Part shown: positions 1 through 20,229 of the stretch, one piece after another
Layout: each line of letters begins with the position of its first letter
Position numbering within the stretch: the first letter of the stretch is position 1
Source of the DNA: Dehalococcoidia bacterium
Lineage (GTDB): Bacteria; Chloroflexota; Dehalococcoidia; Dehalococcoidales; JAUVZE01
DNA length: 32,144 nt
Direction: 5' to 3'
Assembly: GCA_004376435.1 (NCBI GenBank)
Contig: SOJS01000012.1
Location: 1 to 32,144, forward strand
The notes under the pieces: model-generated
Databases searched by the model: none
Seen by the model: only the letters and a program-made list of their open reading frames with translations
What the model was told of the DNA's origin: nothing
Made by a program: the position numbers and the translations under genes

Positions 1-1124
1 GATAGCTGCTTGTTTACCTCATCTTCACTCCAGAAGAAGGACTGCAGTCCCTGCACCCACTCAAAGTAGGATACCACCACCCCGCCAGTGTTAGCCAGCA
101 CATCAGGAACAACAAAGACCCCCTTATCGTAAAGAATATCGTCGGCTCTGGGGGTAGTTGGTCCGTTGGCGCCTTCAATAACCATCTTGGCTTTTACATC
201 GGCGGCATTTTCTTGAACTATCTGGTCCTCAAGGGCGGCCGGTAGTAATATGTCGCATGGTAGCGCTAACAGTTCGGCAGTGGTTACGGCATCAGCACCG
301 GCAAAGCCCTCTACCGAACCTGTCTTCTTTTTGTGATTTAGCACGCCATCTAAATCTAACCCCTTGGGGTTATAGATACCGGCTCGGGAATCGTTTATGG
401 CGATAATCTGGCAGCCCTCTCGGGTCAGCAGTTGAGCCGCCACCGCGCCGACATTACCACAGCCCTGAACCACTACTGTAGTTCCCTTGAGGTCCATGCC
501 CAGGTGCTTGGCTGCCAGTATGGTGCTGAGCATACAGCCACGGCCGGTAGCCTCAAAACGACCCTTGCTACCACCGATTTCAATAGGTTTGCCGGTAACC
601 ACCGGGGGAACAGCGTAGCCCTTTATCATACTGTAGGTATCCATAATCCAAGCCATGATTTGAGGGTTGGTGCCAACATCAGGAGCCGGGATATCCATTT
701 CTGGGCCTATTACGATTGAGATATCACTGGCATAACGCCGGGTTAGCCTTTCCAGCTCGCCCTGGGACATAACCTTTGGATTGCAGATGATGCCCCCCTT
801 GGCGCCACCATAAGGTATGTTAGCCACCGCCGCCTTCAATGTCATCCAGGCGGCTAATGCCCTGGTCTCATCCAGGGTGACACCGGGATGATAACGGATA
901 CCGCCCTTGGCCGGTCCTCGGGTATCGTTATGCATAACCCTGAAACCGGTAAAAACCTTTACTGTCCCGTCGTCCATTTTTACTGGAAAGTTGACGCTAA
1001 GCTCGCGCTCACACCTCAGCAGGCGCTGGCGATACCCATCCTCAACATGCAGATGGTCGCAGGCAGCATTAATCTGCTCCTGTACCACCTCAAAGGGGTT
1101 GATTTCTCCGTGGTTTGAACTCAT
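1..1124 (-). CDS. gdhA: Glutamate dehydrogenase (Glu/Leu/Phe/Val dehydrogenase family); N-terminal ~374 codons, C-terminus lies beyond the left edge
   Basis: Absent from the ORF track because it runs off the window. Minus-strand ATG (complement of 1122-1124) has AGGAGG 9 nt upstream. Translation reads MSSNHGEINPFEVV...GFRVMHNDTRGPAKGGIRYHPGV...NIPYGGAKGGI...TTVVVQGCGNVGAVAA...VIEGANGPTTP...GVVVSYFEWVQ. These are the catalytic-Lys box and Rossmann GxGxxG typical of GDH. Confidence 0.9.
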   Translation of the reverse strand, partial: MSSNHGEINPFEVVQEQINAACDHLHVEDGYRQRLLRCERELSVNFPVKMDDGTVKVFTGFRVMHNDTRGPAKGGIRYHPGVTLDETRALAAWMTLKAAVANIPYGGAKGGIICNPKVMSQGELERLTRRYASDISIVIGPEMDIPAPDVGTNPQIMAWIMDTYSMIKGYAVPPVVTGKPIEIGGSKGRFEATGRGCMLSTILAAKHLGMDLKGTTVVVQGCGNVGAVAAQLLTREGCQIIAINDSRAGIYNPKGLDLDGVLNHKKKTGSVEGFAGADAVTTAELLALPCDILLPAALEDQIVQENAADVKAKMVIEGANGPTTPRADDILYDKGVFVVPDVLANTGGVVVSYFEWVQGLQSFFWSEDEVNKQL

Positions 1125-1205
1125 GATGAACTTCCTCCTAAAAATTTATTTGGGATAGCCCAAAGCAGCCGCTCTTTAGCAGTTACAGTTTGGGCGCAAG
1201 TTCAT

Positions 1206-1269
1206 TTTGCTTAATAAGCATCACTTATTTCATCACGAAAAAATCACGATTTCATCACAAGCAGTCAGG
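1206..1269 (-). promoter_or_regulatory. Copy A of a conserved promoter/operator element facing gdh; carries four ATCAC repeats
   Basis: 1206-1236 and 1259-1269 are the reverse complement of 2080-2121 (30/31 and 10/11 identical by eye). They are interrupted by a 22-nt (2 x 11) insertion at 1237-1258. ATCAC occurs at 1220, 1232, 1243 and 1254, with spacing 12/11/11 nt. Confidence 0.5.
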
Positions 1270-1277
1270 AGTTCACC

Positions 1278-1306
1278 TTGACATCCAGGGGGAAGTGAGA
1301 TACTAT
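1278..1306 (+). promoter_or_regulatory. Sigma-70-like promoter of the response-regulator gene
   Basis: TTGACA (1278-1283), 17-nt spacer, TACTAT (1301-1306), about 50 nt upstream of the TTG start at 1358. Confidence 0.5.
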
Positions 1307-1357
1307 GACCTATGCCGATGACAGGAGAGAGGCTCTTAAGCTAAAGTTGGGGGTAGT

Positions 1358-2050
1358 TTGAAGGTACTGATTATTGGCGAAGACCCAGCCACGATAGAGA
1401 CAATCTCATTAGCCTTTGAGTTCCGCTGGCCCAATGCCAAGTTAGTCTTCACCAACAAGGGAGTCGAAGGCGCCGAACTGGTGGAGAAGGAACCCTTTGA
1501 CATAGTTATCCTTGATACCGATATGCCCGAGACTGACGGCATGGCAGTATTGCAGGAGATTCGACTTTTCTCGGATGTGCCGATGATTATTCTCACCGGG
1601 AGTAGCGAACAAACCGCCATCATCAAAGGACTGGAGCTGGGGGCTGACGATTGCCTCACCAAGCCCTTCGAACCCATGGTACTGCTGGCTCGTGTCAAGA
1701 GCGTGCTAAGGCGGAGCCACATGCCAGAGTTGAAAGAAGATGAGGAGCCCCTGGTCTGCGACGGCTTAGTAATTGATTTTGCCAGCCGTGAGATTACGCA
1801 TAACGGCAAAGCAGCTAAGCTCACCCCAACAGAATGGAACCTGCTTCGCTGTCTGGTCCGAAACAAGGGTCGGCTGATTCCCTATCAGGTGCTGTGGGAG
1901 AAGGCTTGGGGTAGCGCCGAGCCTGATAATGTCCCCGCCATAAGAACATGTGTCTGGCGTCTCAGGGCTAAGCTGGGTGATATGGCATCATCACCCAGCA
2001 TTATAATGGGTGAACGCGGTGTGGGCTACCGCTTTGTCGGACTCGGATAA
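1358..2050 (+). CDS. OmpR/PhoB-family two-component response regulator (receiver + winged-helix DNA-binding domain); no kinase gene nearby
   Basis: TTG start. Receiver hallmarks are present: IIGEDP acidic pocket, phospho-acceptor Asp in VILDTDMPETDG, Thr in ILTG, Lys in TKPF. C-terminal Trans_reg_C-like segment reads LTPTEWNLLRCLVRNKGRLIPYQVL...RLRAKL...RGVGYRF. Confidence 0.9.
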   Translation: MKVLIIGEDPATIETISLAFEFRWPNAKLVFTNKGVEGAELVEKEPFDIVILDTDMPETDGMAVLQEIRLFSDVPMIILTGSSEQTAIIKGLELGADDCLTKPFEPMVLLARVKSVLRRSHMPELKEDEEPLVCDGLVIDFASREITHNGKAAKLTPTEWNLLRCLVRNKGRLIPYQVLWEKAWGSAEPDNVPAIRTCVWRLRAKLGDMASSPSIIMGERGVGYRFVGLG

Positions 2051-2079
2051 AAGCACTCCTTTTGCCTGATACCTCCAAG

Positions 2080-2121
2080 CCTGCCTGCTTGTGATGAAAT
2101 GAGTGATGCTTATTAAGCAAA
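2080..2121 (+). promoter_or_regulatory. Copy B of the same element, facing the ferredoxin-AOR operon; contains a candidate promoter
   Basis: The sequence cctgcctgcttgtgatgaaatgagtgatgcttattaagcaaa is the reverse complement of copy A without the 22-nt insertion. GTGAT occurs at 2091 and 2103. Possible -35 TTGTGA (2089-2094), 16-nt spacer, -10 TATTAA (2111-2116). The element ends 61 nt before the ATG at 2183. Confidence 0.5.
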
Positions 2122-2182
2122 CTTAAGAGAGCACCACCTCTAGAAAACACTTTTTAAGAAAAGAGACCAAGGAGGATAGGAA

Positions 2183-2587
2183 ATGGCTTTACTTAAGCTC
2201 AACGCAGATAAATGCACCGGCTGTGGCATCTGTCTCCTGGCCTGCTCAGCGGTTAAGGAAGGGGTCTTCAACCCTCAGCTTGCCAGTTTGCAGGTCCATT
2301 CCCGCTACGAGAAGGGTGGTCTCACAGTAGAGGGGAAGTTTTGTGACCTGTGCCTGGACTGCGTCGAGGCTTGCCCGACTGAAGCCATCACGGTAAAAGA
2401 TGGTGTCCTTAGTATTGACCAAGAGCTCTGCACTCAGTGCGGGCTGTGCGTTGAAGCCTGCCCCCACGGCATTATCCATCTCTCACCTTCAGATAAGCTA
2501 CTGCTATGTGACCAATGTGGTGGCTCCCCACAATGTATAATCTTCTGCCCCCACCAAGCAATCTATAAAGAGGAGGAGGCAAAATGA
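2183..2587 (+). CDS. Poly-ferredoxin with four [4Fe-4S]-type Cys motifs (AorA-like electron-transfer subunit)
   Basis: Motifs CTGCGICLLAC, CDLCLDCVEACP, CTQCGLCVEACP and CDQCGGSPQCIIFCP. GGAGG RBS. Its stop overlaps the AOR start (ATGA at 2584-2587), indicating translational coupling. Confidence 0.85.
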   Translation: MALLKLNADKCTGCGICLLACSAVKEGVFNPQLASLQVHSRYEKGGLTVEGKFCDLCLDCVEACPTEAITVKDGVLSIDQELCTQCGLCVEACPHGIIHLSPSDKLLLCDQCGGSPQCIIFCPHQAIYKEEEAK

Positions 2588-4341
2588 GTTACAGATGGAA
2601 GGTACTTCGTGTCAACCTTAGTAATGGAAGTGTGGACACAGAGCCTCTAAACAAGGAGTGGACGGAAAAATATTTTGGCGGGCGGGGTTTGGGTGCCAAA
2701 TACCTGTATGAGGAGCTTAAGGGGGGGGTTGAACCGCTATCGCCGGCTAACAAACTCATCCTGACAACGGGTCCTTTTACCGGAACAATTGTGCCCTGCT
2801 CAGGCAAGCTAGCCATTACTACCAAATCGCCAGCCACCGGCGGGCTGCTTGATTGCTCCATTGGCGGTCACTTTGCCTCACAGCTTAAATTTGCTGGCTA
2901 TGATGTTTTGATTATTGAAGGGCAGGCAAAAGGCCCGGTTTACCTGCTAATCGAAGATGATAAGGTGGAAATCCGTAAAGCCAACCATCTCTGGAGTAAG
3001 GGTATTTTTGAAACCGAGTCAAAACTAAATGAAGAACACGGCGTCAACGCCAGGATATTGAGTATTGGTCCCGCCGGAGAGAACCTGGTCCCCTTTGCCT
3101 GTATCGGCTCAGAATTATATCGTCAGGCAGGGCGCGGCGGTGTCGGCTCCGTCATGGGCAGCAAAAAGCTAAAAGCCATTGTCTGCTCCGGGAGTAAGAG
3201 CGTATCTGTGCCTGACATGCCGCGTCTTCTTAAGTTAATCAAAAAGGCGATAGCGGAGGATGTGCTCACCGATACCAATCTCTGGGCACATACTGAAGGC
3301 ACACCAGCAATTGTGGAAATGAGCAATTCCGCCGGTACCTTCCCCACCAGAAACTACCAGGATGGAGTCTTTGCCGGTGCCAAGAAGATTAACTCTGATA
3401 GCATCCAGAGGCAAAAGCCCAAGAAAAAAGCCTGCTTTGCCTGCGCCCTGGGTTGCGGCAATTACACTGCTATCAAAGGCAGTGCCGTGGAGGGTCCAGA
3501 ATACGAGACCCTGGCTGTGGCTGGGGCTAACTGCGGGGTGGATGACCTGGAGGCGATTATCAAGTTCAACGCCGAATGCGATGACCTGGGGCTGGATACA
3601 ATCTCCACCGGCAATGTGCTCGGCTTTGCCATGGAAATGACAGAAAGAGGAATAAAGGATTTTGGCATAAGATTTGGCGATATAAAGAATTACCTAAAAC
3701 TGCCCCAGCTGATTGTCCAGCGCCAGGGGGTTGGAGCGGAATTAAGCCAGGGGGTAAAGAAGCTAGCCAAGAAATACGGCACCGCTGATTTTGCCATGGA
3801 GGTGAAGGGGCTGGAACTGCCTGGCTACGACCCGCGCGGTTCGTGGGCAATGGGGCTGGCTTACGCCACCGCCAGCCGCGGCGGCTGCCACATGAGTGCC
3901 TGGCCTATTGCTGATGAGGCTTTTGGCGACATTGACCCCTTCACTATTGAAGGCAAGGCGAAGCTGGTGATAGACGGACAGCACTACAACGCCATCAAGT
4001 TTTCCCTTATTGTCTGCGATTTCTGGGCGCTTTCTCTAGAGACGATGAGCGAGCTACTATCCTGCGTCCTCGGACGTGAGATTCCGGTTGCTGAACTGGA
4101 AAAGGCCGCGGAACGTATCTGGAACACATTCCGGCTGTTCAATGTCAGAGAGGGTTTCAAGGCGGCTGACGATACCCTGCCGGCTCGCTTCTTTAATGAC
4201 CCCCTGAAGTCTGGAACCCCGGCCGGGCGGGTGCTACCGCGTGACCAGTTTGACTCTATGTTAAAGGAGTATTACCAGCTCCGTGGTTGGGACAGTAACG
4301 GGATGCCGACACAAAAGAAACTTAAGGAGCTGGCAGTATAA
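2584..4341 (+). CDS. aor: Aldehyde:ferredoxin oxidoreductase family enzyme (tungsto/molybdo-pterin, AOR/AorB-like)
   Basis: 585 aa. N-terminal GGRGLGAKYLY; GPEYETL; CxxCxxxC cluster motif (CFACALGC); pterin-binding-type DDLGLDTIS; GLELPGYDPRG; RGGCHMSAWP. These match AOR-family signatures as I remember them. Confidence 0.9.
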   Translation: MSYRWKVLRVNLSNGSVDTEPLNKEWTEKYFGGRGLGAKYLYEELKGGVEPLSPANKLILTTGPFTGTIVPCSGKLAITTKSPATGGLLDCSIGGHFASQLKFAGYDVLIIEGQAKGPVYLLIEDDKVEIRKANHLWSKGIFETESKLNEEHGVNARILSIGPAGENLVPFACIGSELYRQAGRGGVGSVMGSKKLKAIVCSGSKSVSVPDMPRLLKLIKKAIAEDVLTDTNLWAHTEGTPAIVEMSNSAGTFPTRNYQDGVFAGAKKINSDSIQRQKPKKKACFACALGCGNYTAIKGSAVEGPEYETLAVAGANCGVDDLEAIIKFNAECDDLGLDTISTGNVLGFAMEMTERGIKDFGIRFGDIKNYLKLPQLIVQRQGVGAELSQGVKKLAKKYGTADFAMEVKGLELPGYDPRGSWAMGLAYATASRGGCHMSAWPIADEAFGDIDPFTIEGKAKLVIDGQHYNAIKFSLIVCDFWALSLETMSELLSCVLGREIPVAELEKAAERIWNTFRLFNVREGFKAADDTLPARFFNDPLKSGTPAGRVLPRDQFDSMLKEYYQLRGWDSNGMPTQKKLKELAV

Positions 4342-4350
4342 GAGGTGTAA

Positions 4351-4602
4351 ATGGCAGTGGTTAAGGTTCGCCTGCATGGGTCATTACCCTCACACTATTC
4401 TAAAGAGGGTAAGGGCAGGGGGGAGGATATTGCGGTAAAGTTCCCGCAGGAAAAAATAAGGGTGAAGGAAATCTTTGCCAAGCTAAATATTCCTGAAGAG
4501 GCGGTGGCTTTTGTGGCTATAAACGGTGTCAAAGGAGCTAAAGACGCCTGGGCAAAAGAAGGAGATAAGGTAACCATTTTCCCCTTTGTCGCTGGTGGTT
4601 AG
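4351..4602 (+). CDS. Small ThiS/MoaD-like beta-grasp protein with C-terminal Gly-Gly
   Basis: 83 aa ending ...DKVTIFPFVAGG-stop. GAGGTG RBS 9 nt after the aor stop. Its size, C-terminal GG and position next to a pterin enzyme fit a sulfur-carrier protein. Confidence 0.65.
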   Translation: MAVVKVRLHGSLPSHYSKEGKGRGEDIAVKFPQEKIRVKEIFAKLNIPEEAVAFVAINGVKGAKDAWAKEGDKVTIFPFVAGG

Positions 4603-4628
4603 ACATAAGGTCAATCACTATTAGAGTG

Positions 4629-19077: not shown

Positions 19078-20229
19078 GTGAGGATTAAAAATAGCGCACC
19101 ATTAGCTATCAAGATATGGCTGCTTGTAGCTTTACTGCTGGCTAGTCTGGTTCTTGTCGGCTGTTTTGGCGTTCCACCCCGGGGGTGGTCAGGAGGAGCA
19201 GTAGCCGAGGATACCCTGTTTCTGGGTTCTATGGATGGCGAGTTCCTCGCCCTGAAGGCAGAAAGTGGTGCTCGTCTGTGGCAGATGCCAATTGAAACCG
19301 AAACTAGCGGCGGTGGCTTTGGCTGTGCGCCAGCACCAACATCAGTCGCTATCTATGGCACCCCAGCAGTTGGGGAGGAGTTGGTCTATTTTGGTGGCTA
19401 TAATGGTAAGGTCTATGCCCTTAATACCAGTTCCGGCGCCTTGAGGTGGGTCTATCCCCGCCAGGGTAATCTGGAGCCGATTGCCGGTGGGGCAGTGGTA
19501 GCGCTAGGTAAGCTCTATATTGGCTCTTCAGATGGCAAGCTCTATGCTCTGGATGCCGCCACCGGTGATGAGATTTGGCAGTTTGAGACCGGAGACAAGG
19601 TGTGGTCAACGCCGGTTATTGACGGCAACAGATTGTTCATTGCTTCCTTTGATAAAAAGCTCTATGCTCTGGATGCCGCTACCGGTGACGAGATTTGGCA
19701 GTTTGAGACTGAAGGGGCTATTGTCTCCACCCCCGTCGTCCATAATAGCCGGGTCTATATTGGCTCCTTTGACAGGCACCTTTATGCTCTAGATGCCGCC
19801 AGTGGCAGAAAAATCTGGCAGTTCCCCAGTGATGATGAGGCTGAGGGCGGGCCGGGAAACTGGTTCTGGGCAAAGCCGATTGTCCATAATAACACCCTAT
19901 ATGCCGTCAATCTTGATGGCAGGGTCTATATCTTAAGTGCCGAAACTGGCAGTGAGGTGGCCAGCACCATTGACATTGGCAGTCCCCTTTCCTCGTGGCC
20001 GGTTTTAGCTGACAGCTCGGTTATTATCGCCTCCGAGGAGGGCACAATATACGCTCTTGATACCGCCACTAACCAAGTTAAGCCGCTGGCTAACCTGGAT
20101 GAGAAGGTCTATGCTCCCCTAGCCGCCAGCGATGGGGTGGTCTATGTTCACACCCAGGAAAACACCCTTTATGCGCTGAGTGCCCAGACAGGGGTAACGC
20201 TGTGGAGCCTGCCACTAAGCAGTAAGTGA
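19078..20229 (+). CDS. PQQ-like (BamB/YfgL-like) eight-bladed beta-propeller lipoprotein
   Basis: GTG start with GGAGAG RBS. Signal peptide and lipobox LVLVGC. Eight repeats of about 40 aa of the type (K/R)LYALDAxTGxxxWQF. It lies 25 nt after yidD and 11 nt before yidC. Confidence 0.8.
   Translation: MRIKNSAPLAIKIWLLVALLLASLVLVGCFGVPPRGWSGGAVAEDTLFLGSMDGEFLALKAESGARLWQMPIETETSGGGFGCAPAPTSVAIYGTPAVGEELVYFGGYNGKVYALNTSSGALRWVYPRQGNLEPIAGGAVVALGKLYIGSSDGKLYALDAATGDEIWQFETGDKVWSTPVIDGNRLFIASFDKKLYALDAATGDEIWQFETEGAIVSTPVVHNSRVYIGSFDRHLYALDAASGRKIWQFPSDDEAEGGPGNWFWAKPIVHNNTLYAVNLDGRVYILSAETGSEVASTIDIGSPLSSWPVLADSSVIIASEEGTIYALDTATNQVKPLANLDEKVYAPLAASDGVVYVHTQENTLYALSAQTGVTLWSLPLSSK

Follow-up and report, generated by a model that had tools for sequence, protein, structure and literature searches.

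The window analysed here is the whole of a 32,144-nt contig (C60) from a metagenome-assembled genome of 791 kb in 115 contigs, estimated to be 89% complete. The only run found to hold this contig is a marine-sediment metagenome, no RNA run with the locus was found, and source labels of homologues indicate Chloroflexota/Dehalococcoidales. At the left end of the window, a glutamate dehydrogenase gene (gdh, 3-1124, minus strand; Pfam ELFV_dehydrog and ELFV_dehydrog_N, NCBIfam GdhA-like), whose 3' end lies off the window, is followed on the plus strand by a gene with a TTG start for an OmpR/PhoB-family response regulator of 230 aa (1358-2050; Pfam Response_reg and Trans_reg_C, alignment and clade definition), and then by three called genes, also on the plus strand, that form the group fdx-aor-moaD (2183-4602). 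These encode a polyferredoxin (fdx, 2183-2587), which overlaps the start of aor, an aldehyde:ferredoxin oxidoreductase (AOR, 2584-4341) and a MoaD/ThiS-like protein (4351-4602); gdh and fdx-aor-moaD are the two proposed targets of the regulator. Downstream of the MoaD/ThiS-like gene lie a TRAP transporter (dctPQM) and a class-III aminotransferase. Domain annotation bears out the gene calls of the initial annotation at this end (GDH, regulator, ferredoxin-AOR, TRAP). The remaining genes of the contig comprise a saccharopine-dehydrogenase family gene, an Opp-type ABC importer, rpsF-ssb-rpsR, rnpA-yidC-jag, ileS, htrA and trp genes.

The regulator gene is bracketed by two inverted copies of one module of about 45 nt, at 1201-1269 and 2080-2126, reported by the repeat finder as the inverted pairs 1201-1236/2091-2126 (36 nt, 92%) and 1249-1269/2080-2100 (21 nt, 95%). 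The inverted identity previously claimed is reproduced by alignment, with 30 of 31 positions identical between 1206-1236 and the reverse complement of 2091-2121, and 10 of 11 between 1259-1269 and 2080-2090. Local alignment of both intergenic regions gave a score of 28 in inverted and 10 in direct orientation, against 7.4 +/- 1.0 (maximum 12) for 2000 shuffles. The left copy (1206-1269, minus strand), a putative operator/promoter that faces gdh and is delimited by the repeat finder and by alignment, has four GTGAT boxes, which read on the plus strand as ATCAC at 1220-1224, 1232-1236, 1243-1247 and 1254-1258 (spacing 12, 11 and 11 nt), just where they had been placed before. The right copy (2080-2126, plus strand; repeat finder and alignment), facing fdx-aor, holds two, GTGAT at 2091-2095 and at 2103-2107, 12 nt apart, likewise at the positions first described. 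Relative to the right copy, the left one carries the 22-nt insertion already recognized earlier, which adds two boxes (1237-1258, by repeat finder and alignment); its placement is ambiguous, 1227-1248 being equally possible, since ATTTCATCAC is present at 1227 and again at 1249. Both copies have the same orientation relative to the gene they face and lie at similar distances from its start codon, the gdh ATG (1124) being 81 nt away from 1206 and the fdx ATG (2183) 61 nt away from 2121, as had been measured.

The resemblance between the copies is not limited to their boxes. Identity reaches past these into GCTTATTAAGCAAA and AAGCAG-CAGG, which points to a recent duplication of the module, or to recombination that keeps the copies similar, and not to motif convergence. 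In the right copy, the sequence following the boxes includes a GCTTA-T-TAAGC palindrome (2108-2118), confined to the two copies in the assembly. A Logan contig that stems from a separate assembly of the source run follows the window co-linearly from 900 to 2500, without indels and with two substitutions (2134 and 2142), so that the repeat structure is not a binning or assembly artefact. Is the module a dispersed repeat, as the initial annotation had considered? Its 11-14-nt core strings occur solely at the two copies in the 791-kb assembly, the one extra match of CTTAATAAGCA lying within a gene, and a dispersed repeat is thereby ruled out. Another reading raised with the initial annotation is an invertible switch, in which recombination would flip 1270-2079 and bring the regulator and its promoter into the direction of gdh. 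Inverted repeats of 36 and 21 nt do bracket a promoter-bearing segment, but no recombinase gene lies on the 32-kb contig, the orientation of the window is the only one in the Logan contig just mentioned, which has no joints (a weak test, as a minority form is invisible in contigs), and the operator boxes explain the repeat content, all of which makes such a switch very improbable.

The regulator itself combines a receiver domain (PF00072, residues 3-114, E = 6.8e-22) and a winged-helix Trans_reg_C domain (PF00486, residues 151-226, E = 3.3e-16). Asp53, Thr80 and Lys102 are kept, in invariant or near-invariant columns of the alignment, together with an acidic pair (Glu8-Asp9). The loop after Asp53 is altered, and the switch tyrosine is replaced by Cys99; the other aligned homologues keep Tyr, except P0003, which also has Cys. 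The best matches among solved structures are MtrA, DrrD, BaeR and KdpE (E 5e-32 to 1e-26), and clade members carry the JGI label 'KdpE'. Likeness to these four is at the family level only, and no kdp genes lie near the regulator. All 25 best of the 45 NCBIfam families matched fall below the curated cut-off, for example MtrA, the best, with 153.7 bits against 300, PhoB with 121.3 against 296.2, and KdpE with 111.9 against 325. The 90% cluster of the regulator is a singleton, its nearest homologue being 65% identical and in another gene context.

Since the regulator forms a singleton cluster with no public orthologous loci, the question asked in place of operator conservation was whether the type of box follows the type of regulator. 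The recognition helix is PAIRTCVWRLRAKLGD, and the helix A(I/L)RTC(V/I)WRLR(A/S)KLGD is common to the regulator and only five clusters (P0002, P0006, P0010, P0016 and P0038). A profile of these six clusters, run against 5.8 billion proteins, gave 387-420 bits for the members and 332 or less for the next, and scanning genome and metagenome collections with the back-translated helix added six further loci, mostly orthologues of known clade loci. Every clade member with flanking DNA has GTGA(T/C) boxes directly 3' of the regulator gene and in the orientation of the gene that follows; they form direct repeats with a spacing of 10-12 nt, except at L027, where there is a single box (TTGTGAT). At L021, the boxes read TTTGTGATCGAATTGTGATATTTTGTGATGATAACCGTGAT, four in number with spacings of 11, 10 and 12; those of L022 and L041 read CGTGATG(T/C)TT(C/T)GTGATGGAAT, those of L025, L043 and L044 read TTGTGATTATTTGTGATGGAAT, and those of L026 and L045 follow GTGAT-N6-GTGAC-N5-GTGAT-N6-GTGAC. 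The sister clade (P0121 and P0122), with the helix SxIRSYIARLR, has in the same position TTGCCACGA three times and then TTGCAAC, with 11-nt spacing, that is, TTGC(C/A)ACGA repeats and not GTGA(T/C). As this clade differs in both helix and box, the two appear to change together, a link backed by only four or five independent lineages.

How specific are such boxes to the regulator? Elsewhere in the 791-kb genome, GTGA(T/C) pairs occur three times, all within genes, and the 130 kb of sequence surrounding 11 AOR loci and 20 more distant regulator genes contained none. The genome-wide box search proposed with the initial annotation was run with a matrix made from the relatives' boxes alone. Among all tandem sites of the genome, the top three places went to overlapping sites in the left array, and none of the other intergenic tandem sites had its cores intact. 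Single boxes are too frequent to be informative, with 106 genomic sites scoring 10 bits or more. The lone ATCAC at 4614, noticed earlier near the TRAP promoter and suspected of being fortuitous, is thus best read as chance: it is a single box, and it is oriented in the direction opposite to the TRAP operon. In G041, the genome with homologue P0006, the pattern matches 15 times, mostly within genes; among the ten inspected, only the regulator-adjacent site combines the 22-nt spacing described below with a strong -10 hexamer.

The link between helix and box across the clade supports the earlier proposal that the regulator encoded between the copies co-controls gdh and fdx-aor, and the boxes of each copy are, on this comparative evidence, probably the regulator's own binding-site array. 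It also bears on two other readings of the repeats. The copies could stem from recent duplication or gene conversion and have little or no regulatory role, or serve another factor, the GCTTA-N-TAAGC palindrome being the candidate site and a NarL-like protein on contig C103 the candidate factor. The identity in GCTTATTAAGCAAA and AAGCAG-CAGG, which exceeds what selection on binding sites alone requires, and the restriction of the palindrome to the two copies agree with this; yet the palindrome is missing from the relatives' sites, the GTGAT arrays track the regulator clade, and both copies keep the same orientation and similar start-codon distances, so that we give this reading a small chance. 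Even less credible, and the least probable of all the readings considered, is the remnant of a mobile element with terminal inverted repeats and the regulator gene as passenger. An inverted repeat of about 45 nt does flank a single gene, the closest regulator homologues are in other contexts, and relatives of the same family have aminotransferase-fdx-aor without the regulator; but there is no transposase on the contig, no target-site duplication beside 1201 or 2126 and no other genomic copy, and the supposed ends are phased regulator boxes common to unrelated clade loci.

Reading the array as the regulator's own leads to the promoters. A promoter scan of 1050-2250 confirms the sigma-70-type promoter TTGACA-17-TACTAT claimed for the regulator gene (1278-1306, plus strand), which is the only consensus-like promoter with a plausible transcript in this interval; a weaker second match, ATGACA-18-TAAAGT (1318-1347), overlaps the regulator leader. 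The same scan found no consensus promoter for gdh or fdx, as expected for activator-dependent promoters. Each copy offers a candidate -10 element, separated by 22 nt from the last box but one and by 10 nt from the last: CAAAAT for gdh (1204-1209, minus strand; boxes 3 and 4) and a weak CAAACT for fdx-aor (2118-2123, plus strand; boxes 1 and 2). Both proposed elements are weak, CAAACT matching just 3 of the 6 -10 positions, and the promoter-proximal boxes score low in the relatives' matrix (4.1 and 6.6 bits).

The 22-nt offset recurs in the clade. From the end of a GTGAT box to a -10-like hexamer, the distance is exactly 22 nt in the left copy of the window, L021, L022/L041, L025/L044 and L027, with the hexamers CAAAAT, TAAAGT, TACAAT, TAACAT and TAAAAT, and with the weaker CAAACT in the right copy; where a -35 would fall in these loci, the sequence is poor (GGAAT and similar). 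For comparison, a -10-like hexamer stands at this offset from 1.2% of all genomic GTGAT and from 3.9% of the intergenic ones. The rule was noticed post hoc, and L026 does not obey it. With the -10 element numbered -12..-7, the 22-nt-spaced box occupies -39..-35 and the next one -27..-23. The proximal box, 12 nt further on, is common to both window copies and to L021, the closest relative (65% identity), and the gdh copy has two further boxes at about -50 and -61.

This geometry recalls the pho box, where direct repeats, arranged in tandem with a period of about 11 nt, serve instead of a -35 element and stop 10 bp short of the -10 (PMC1906773). As the last box of the window likewise ends 10 nt before CAAA(A/C)T, the array would take the place of a -35 element, and pho-box geometry makes activation, rather than repression, the likeliest mode of action at gdh and fdx-aor. 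We regard as reasonably probable, from these sequence comparisons, that the locus holds one activator-dependent promoter/operator module, duplicated, bound by the regulator encoded between the copies, and facing gdh on one side and fdx-aor-moaD on the other. The regulator would bind head-to-tail to the GTGAT direct repeats, at boxes lying in both copies at about -39..-35 and -27..-23 upstream of a weak -10 (CAAAAT or CAAACT), and, once bound, would recruit RNA polymerase and so activate both gdh and fdx-aor-moaD in a class-II-type manner. At gdh, the additional two-box unit of 22 nt should increase occupancy or cooperativity. The left array may also feed back on the regulator promoter, since it spans -93..-55 of that promoter in opposite orientation.

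Repression is the main competing mode, and we consider it unlikely without dismissing it. Here the module would hold a promoter of its own, TTGTGA-16-TATTAA, mirrored in the left copy, and boxes bound by the regulator would occlude RNA polymerase. In the right copy, this promoter can be read directly in the sequence (TTGTGA at 2089-2094, TATTAA at 2111-2116), the boxes overlap its -35 and spacer, and one box lies within the spacer in both copies. The gdh leader gives a further argument. If CAAAAT is the -10, transcription would start so as to leave a predicted leader of about 73 nt (1125-1197, minus strand; start inferred), which includes an inverted pair noted at 1126-1142/1189-1205 up to 1197, folds at -28.7 kcal/mol (z = -3.2) and has its 5' end paired beside the Shine-Dalgarno sequence; with TATTAA as the -10, the predicted start moves to about 1204, and the gdh transcript would take in all of the 5' arm of this stem. 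Against repression, TATTAA lacks the conserved final T, the module was not called by the promoter scan, and the 22-nt insertion of the left copy puts TTGTGA 38 nt from TATTAA, leaving TCGTGA as -35. In addition, relatives whose boxes are all upstream have the classic layout of activator-dependent promoters, in which the -35 is poor and a good -10 stands exactly 22 nt downstream of the box. Another objection to activation is that fdx-aor might be expressed by read-through from the strong promoter of the regulator, without the right copy: the scan found no terminator between the regulator gene and fdx, so that read-through is possible and perhaps provides a basal level of fdx-aor.

How does the activator-type module compare with known systems? 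With PhoB and the pho box of E. coli, it shares an OmpR/PhoB winged-helix regulator, the last box 10 nt before the -10, and extra upstream units at some promoters. The boxes differ (CTGTCAT in the pho box, GTGAT here), as do the genes concerned (phosphate genes there, amino-acid and aldehyde oxidation genes here), and the regulator of the window is below the PhoB equivalog cut-off, with no PhoR-like kinase. The GlnR operator of actinomycetes is built of 22-bp units, each with two 5-nt sites 6 nt apart, and two or three units are found per promoter (PMC5826061). GlnR is, like the regulator studied here, an orphan OmpR-type protein without cognate kinase, in its case controlling nitrogen metabolism; in the window, the 5-nt cores likewise recur with a period of about 11 nt, and the gdh copy exceeds the aor copy by exactly one 22-nt two-box unit. 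In contrast, GlnR is not among the 25 best of 45 NCBIfam matches for the regulator, box sequences and phylum differ, and the regulon of the window appears local (two promoters).

Atypical members of the family offer another comparison. ChxR of Chlamydia and HP1043/HsrA of Helicobacter are OmpR/PhoB-family proteins of small genomes, also without cognate kinase, and ChxR binds direct repeats, including those of its own promoter (PMC3960148). In these proteins the phospho-accepting Asp and other active-site residues are lost (PMC3960148), unlike Asp53, Thr80 and Lys102 here. Membership of the ChxR/HP1043 class was thus rejected for want of its defining loss of the acceptor Asp, the change of the switch Tyr to Cys99 being the only deviation. 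At ompF and ompC, the OmpR sites F1-F3 and C1-C3 form arrays of several phased sites in tandem, which are graded in strength and lie upstream of the -35 element and across it; their number varies between co-regulated promoters, and their sequences and biology differ from those of the window. Taken together, the regulator appears most like PhoB at the pho box in geometry, and most like GlnR in biology and unit structure. The element belongs to a common type of control element, and all that sets it apart is that the assembled genome encodes no sensor kinase.

The initial annotation had stated that the window encodes no histidine kinase; gene annotation confirms this, and the statement extends to the whole assembly. 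No HisKA domain was found in the 89%-complete assembly, where the only HATPase_c match is GyrB, and tblastn searches of the assembly with the kinases of three relatives gave no match. HisKA genes are present in 25 of the 25 relatives searched, with 1-32 each, including genomes that are 55-68% complete. The regulator is thus an orphan without a cognate kinase in the assembly, which encodes just one further receiver protein, the NarL-like one of C103; the clade member of L026/L045 is likewise without an upstream kinase. As 11% of the genome is missing, a single kinase could have escaped, and true absence of kinases is only plausible.

What, then, would the regulator respond to? The proposed module would need an activating signal, for which the assembly offers no kinase. 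Acetyl phosphate was considered as a donor, and the evidence is against it, since neither acetate kinase nor phosphotransacetylase was found in the assembly. The input could be a kinase encoded in the missing 11% or so, another phosphodonor, or an action independent of phosphorylation. A more far-reaching scenario, which we hold to be distinctly unlikely, is that this streamlined lineage lost all its histidine kinases and the acetyl-phosphate pathway, and that its single OmpR-type regulator, with the Asp pocket intact and the switch Tyr replaced, works without phosphotransfer, its input being a thiol or redox change at Cys99, a metabolite or its own concentration. It would then couple glutamate deamination to ferredoxin-dependent aldehyde oxidation, with a regulon that grows by copying the 45-nt cassette and by 22-nt two-box increments.

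The arrangement of the locus seems to be peculiar to this lineage. Relatives of the AOR (52% identity, same family) are encoded in aminotransferase-fdx-aor operons without the regulator or gdh, and homologues of the regulator all lie in other gene contexts, mostly directly 3' of a kinase gene, which argues for the gdh/regulator/fdx-aor arrangement as lineage-specific wiring. Such wiring would have been achieved by duplicating a whole promoter/operator module, the two-box increment at gdh resembling the 22-bp unit logic of GlnR. A canonical-looking receiver in an apparently kinase-less assembly poses a small puzzle on signal input in reduced genomes. More generally, the comparison yields a testable assignment of regulator to operator, in which the helix RTC[VI]W would correspond to GTGAT and the sister helix RSY[IV]A to GC[C/A]AC, in a group of uncultured Chloroflexota/Dehalococcoidia in which binding sites are known for hardly any transcription factor. 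The module would place gdh and a tungsten-type AOR operon in one control unit, which would support the idea of a joint role of both in the fermentation of amino acids or amines in sediments.

The genome assembly that contains the regulator (89% complete) was searched as a whole, and neither HisKA nor kinase-type HATPase_c domains were found in it, nor were acetate kinase and phosphotransacetylase; at least one kinase was present in each of the 25 relatives searched. The only other receiver-domain protein of this assembly is a NarL/LuxR-like protein of 241 aa (contig C103, 193-915), which from its sequence looks like an atypical receiver, because CTFSQQP at its N-terminus replaces the acidic pair expected at this site. 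Genes similar to this one adjoin the OmpR-type regulators of several relatives (loci L002, L003, L005 and L008).

An upstream kinase gene is likewise missing for P0016, a regulator cluster of the GTGAT clade (L026:400-957 and L045), and the gene downstream of it, behind a five-box GTGAT/GTGAC array, encodes a Peripla_BP_6 solute-binding protein. The sister-clade regulators, with the recognition helix IRSYIARLR, have three TTGCCACGA repeats and TTGCAAC downstream at 11-nt spacing (L046:4745-4810; L047:4730-4775), a candidate second helix-to-box pair. A second sediment metagenome (run X2) yielded a 265-nt contig, its flanks unassembled, that is about 94% identical to the receiver region of the regulator (window 1362-1626), and therefore a closer relative exists.

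Each copy of the inverted, putative operator module carries one 5-1-5 palindrome, GCTTA-N-TAAGC (window 2108-2118 and 1209-1219), which in both cases follows the last box and precedes the candidate -10, and which is found neither at the relatives' sites nor elsewhere in the genome. A weight matrix made from the relatives' boxes returned, as a weak match, a 21-nt repeat, TTTGAGATAGTTTCTGATTTT, present twice on contig C105 of the same assembly (at 19878 and 20777, about 900 nt apart). Just downstream of the right copy, an independent assembly of the source run (Logan contig) differs from the window at two positions, 2134 (C>T) and 2142 (A>G); both changes fall in the predicted fdx leader and are variation at strain level. 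On the other side, the gdh leader (window 1125-1205, minus strand) has a stable predicted fold (-28.7 kcal/mol, z = -3.2), in which AUGAACUUG, at its 5' end, pairs with GAAGUUCAU, located after the Shine-Dalgarno sequence and before the gdh start codon; the fold may serve to control translation, or else to stabilise the mRNA.

The closest homologues of the AOR, of the same family and 52% identical, are those of loci L029 and L030 (G003:C10 and G001:C33, respectively), where the operon runs aminotransferase (class III)-polyferredoxin-AOR, a layout that supports the idea that transamination and ferredoxin-dependent aldehyde oxidation are linked.
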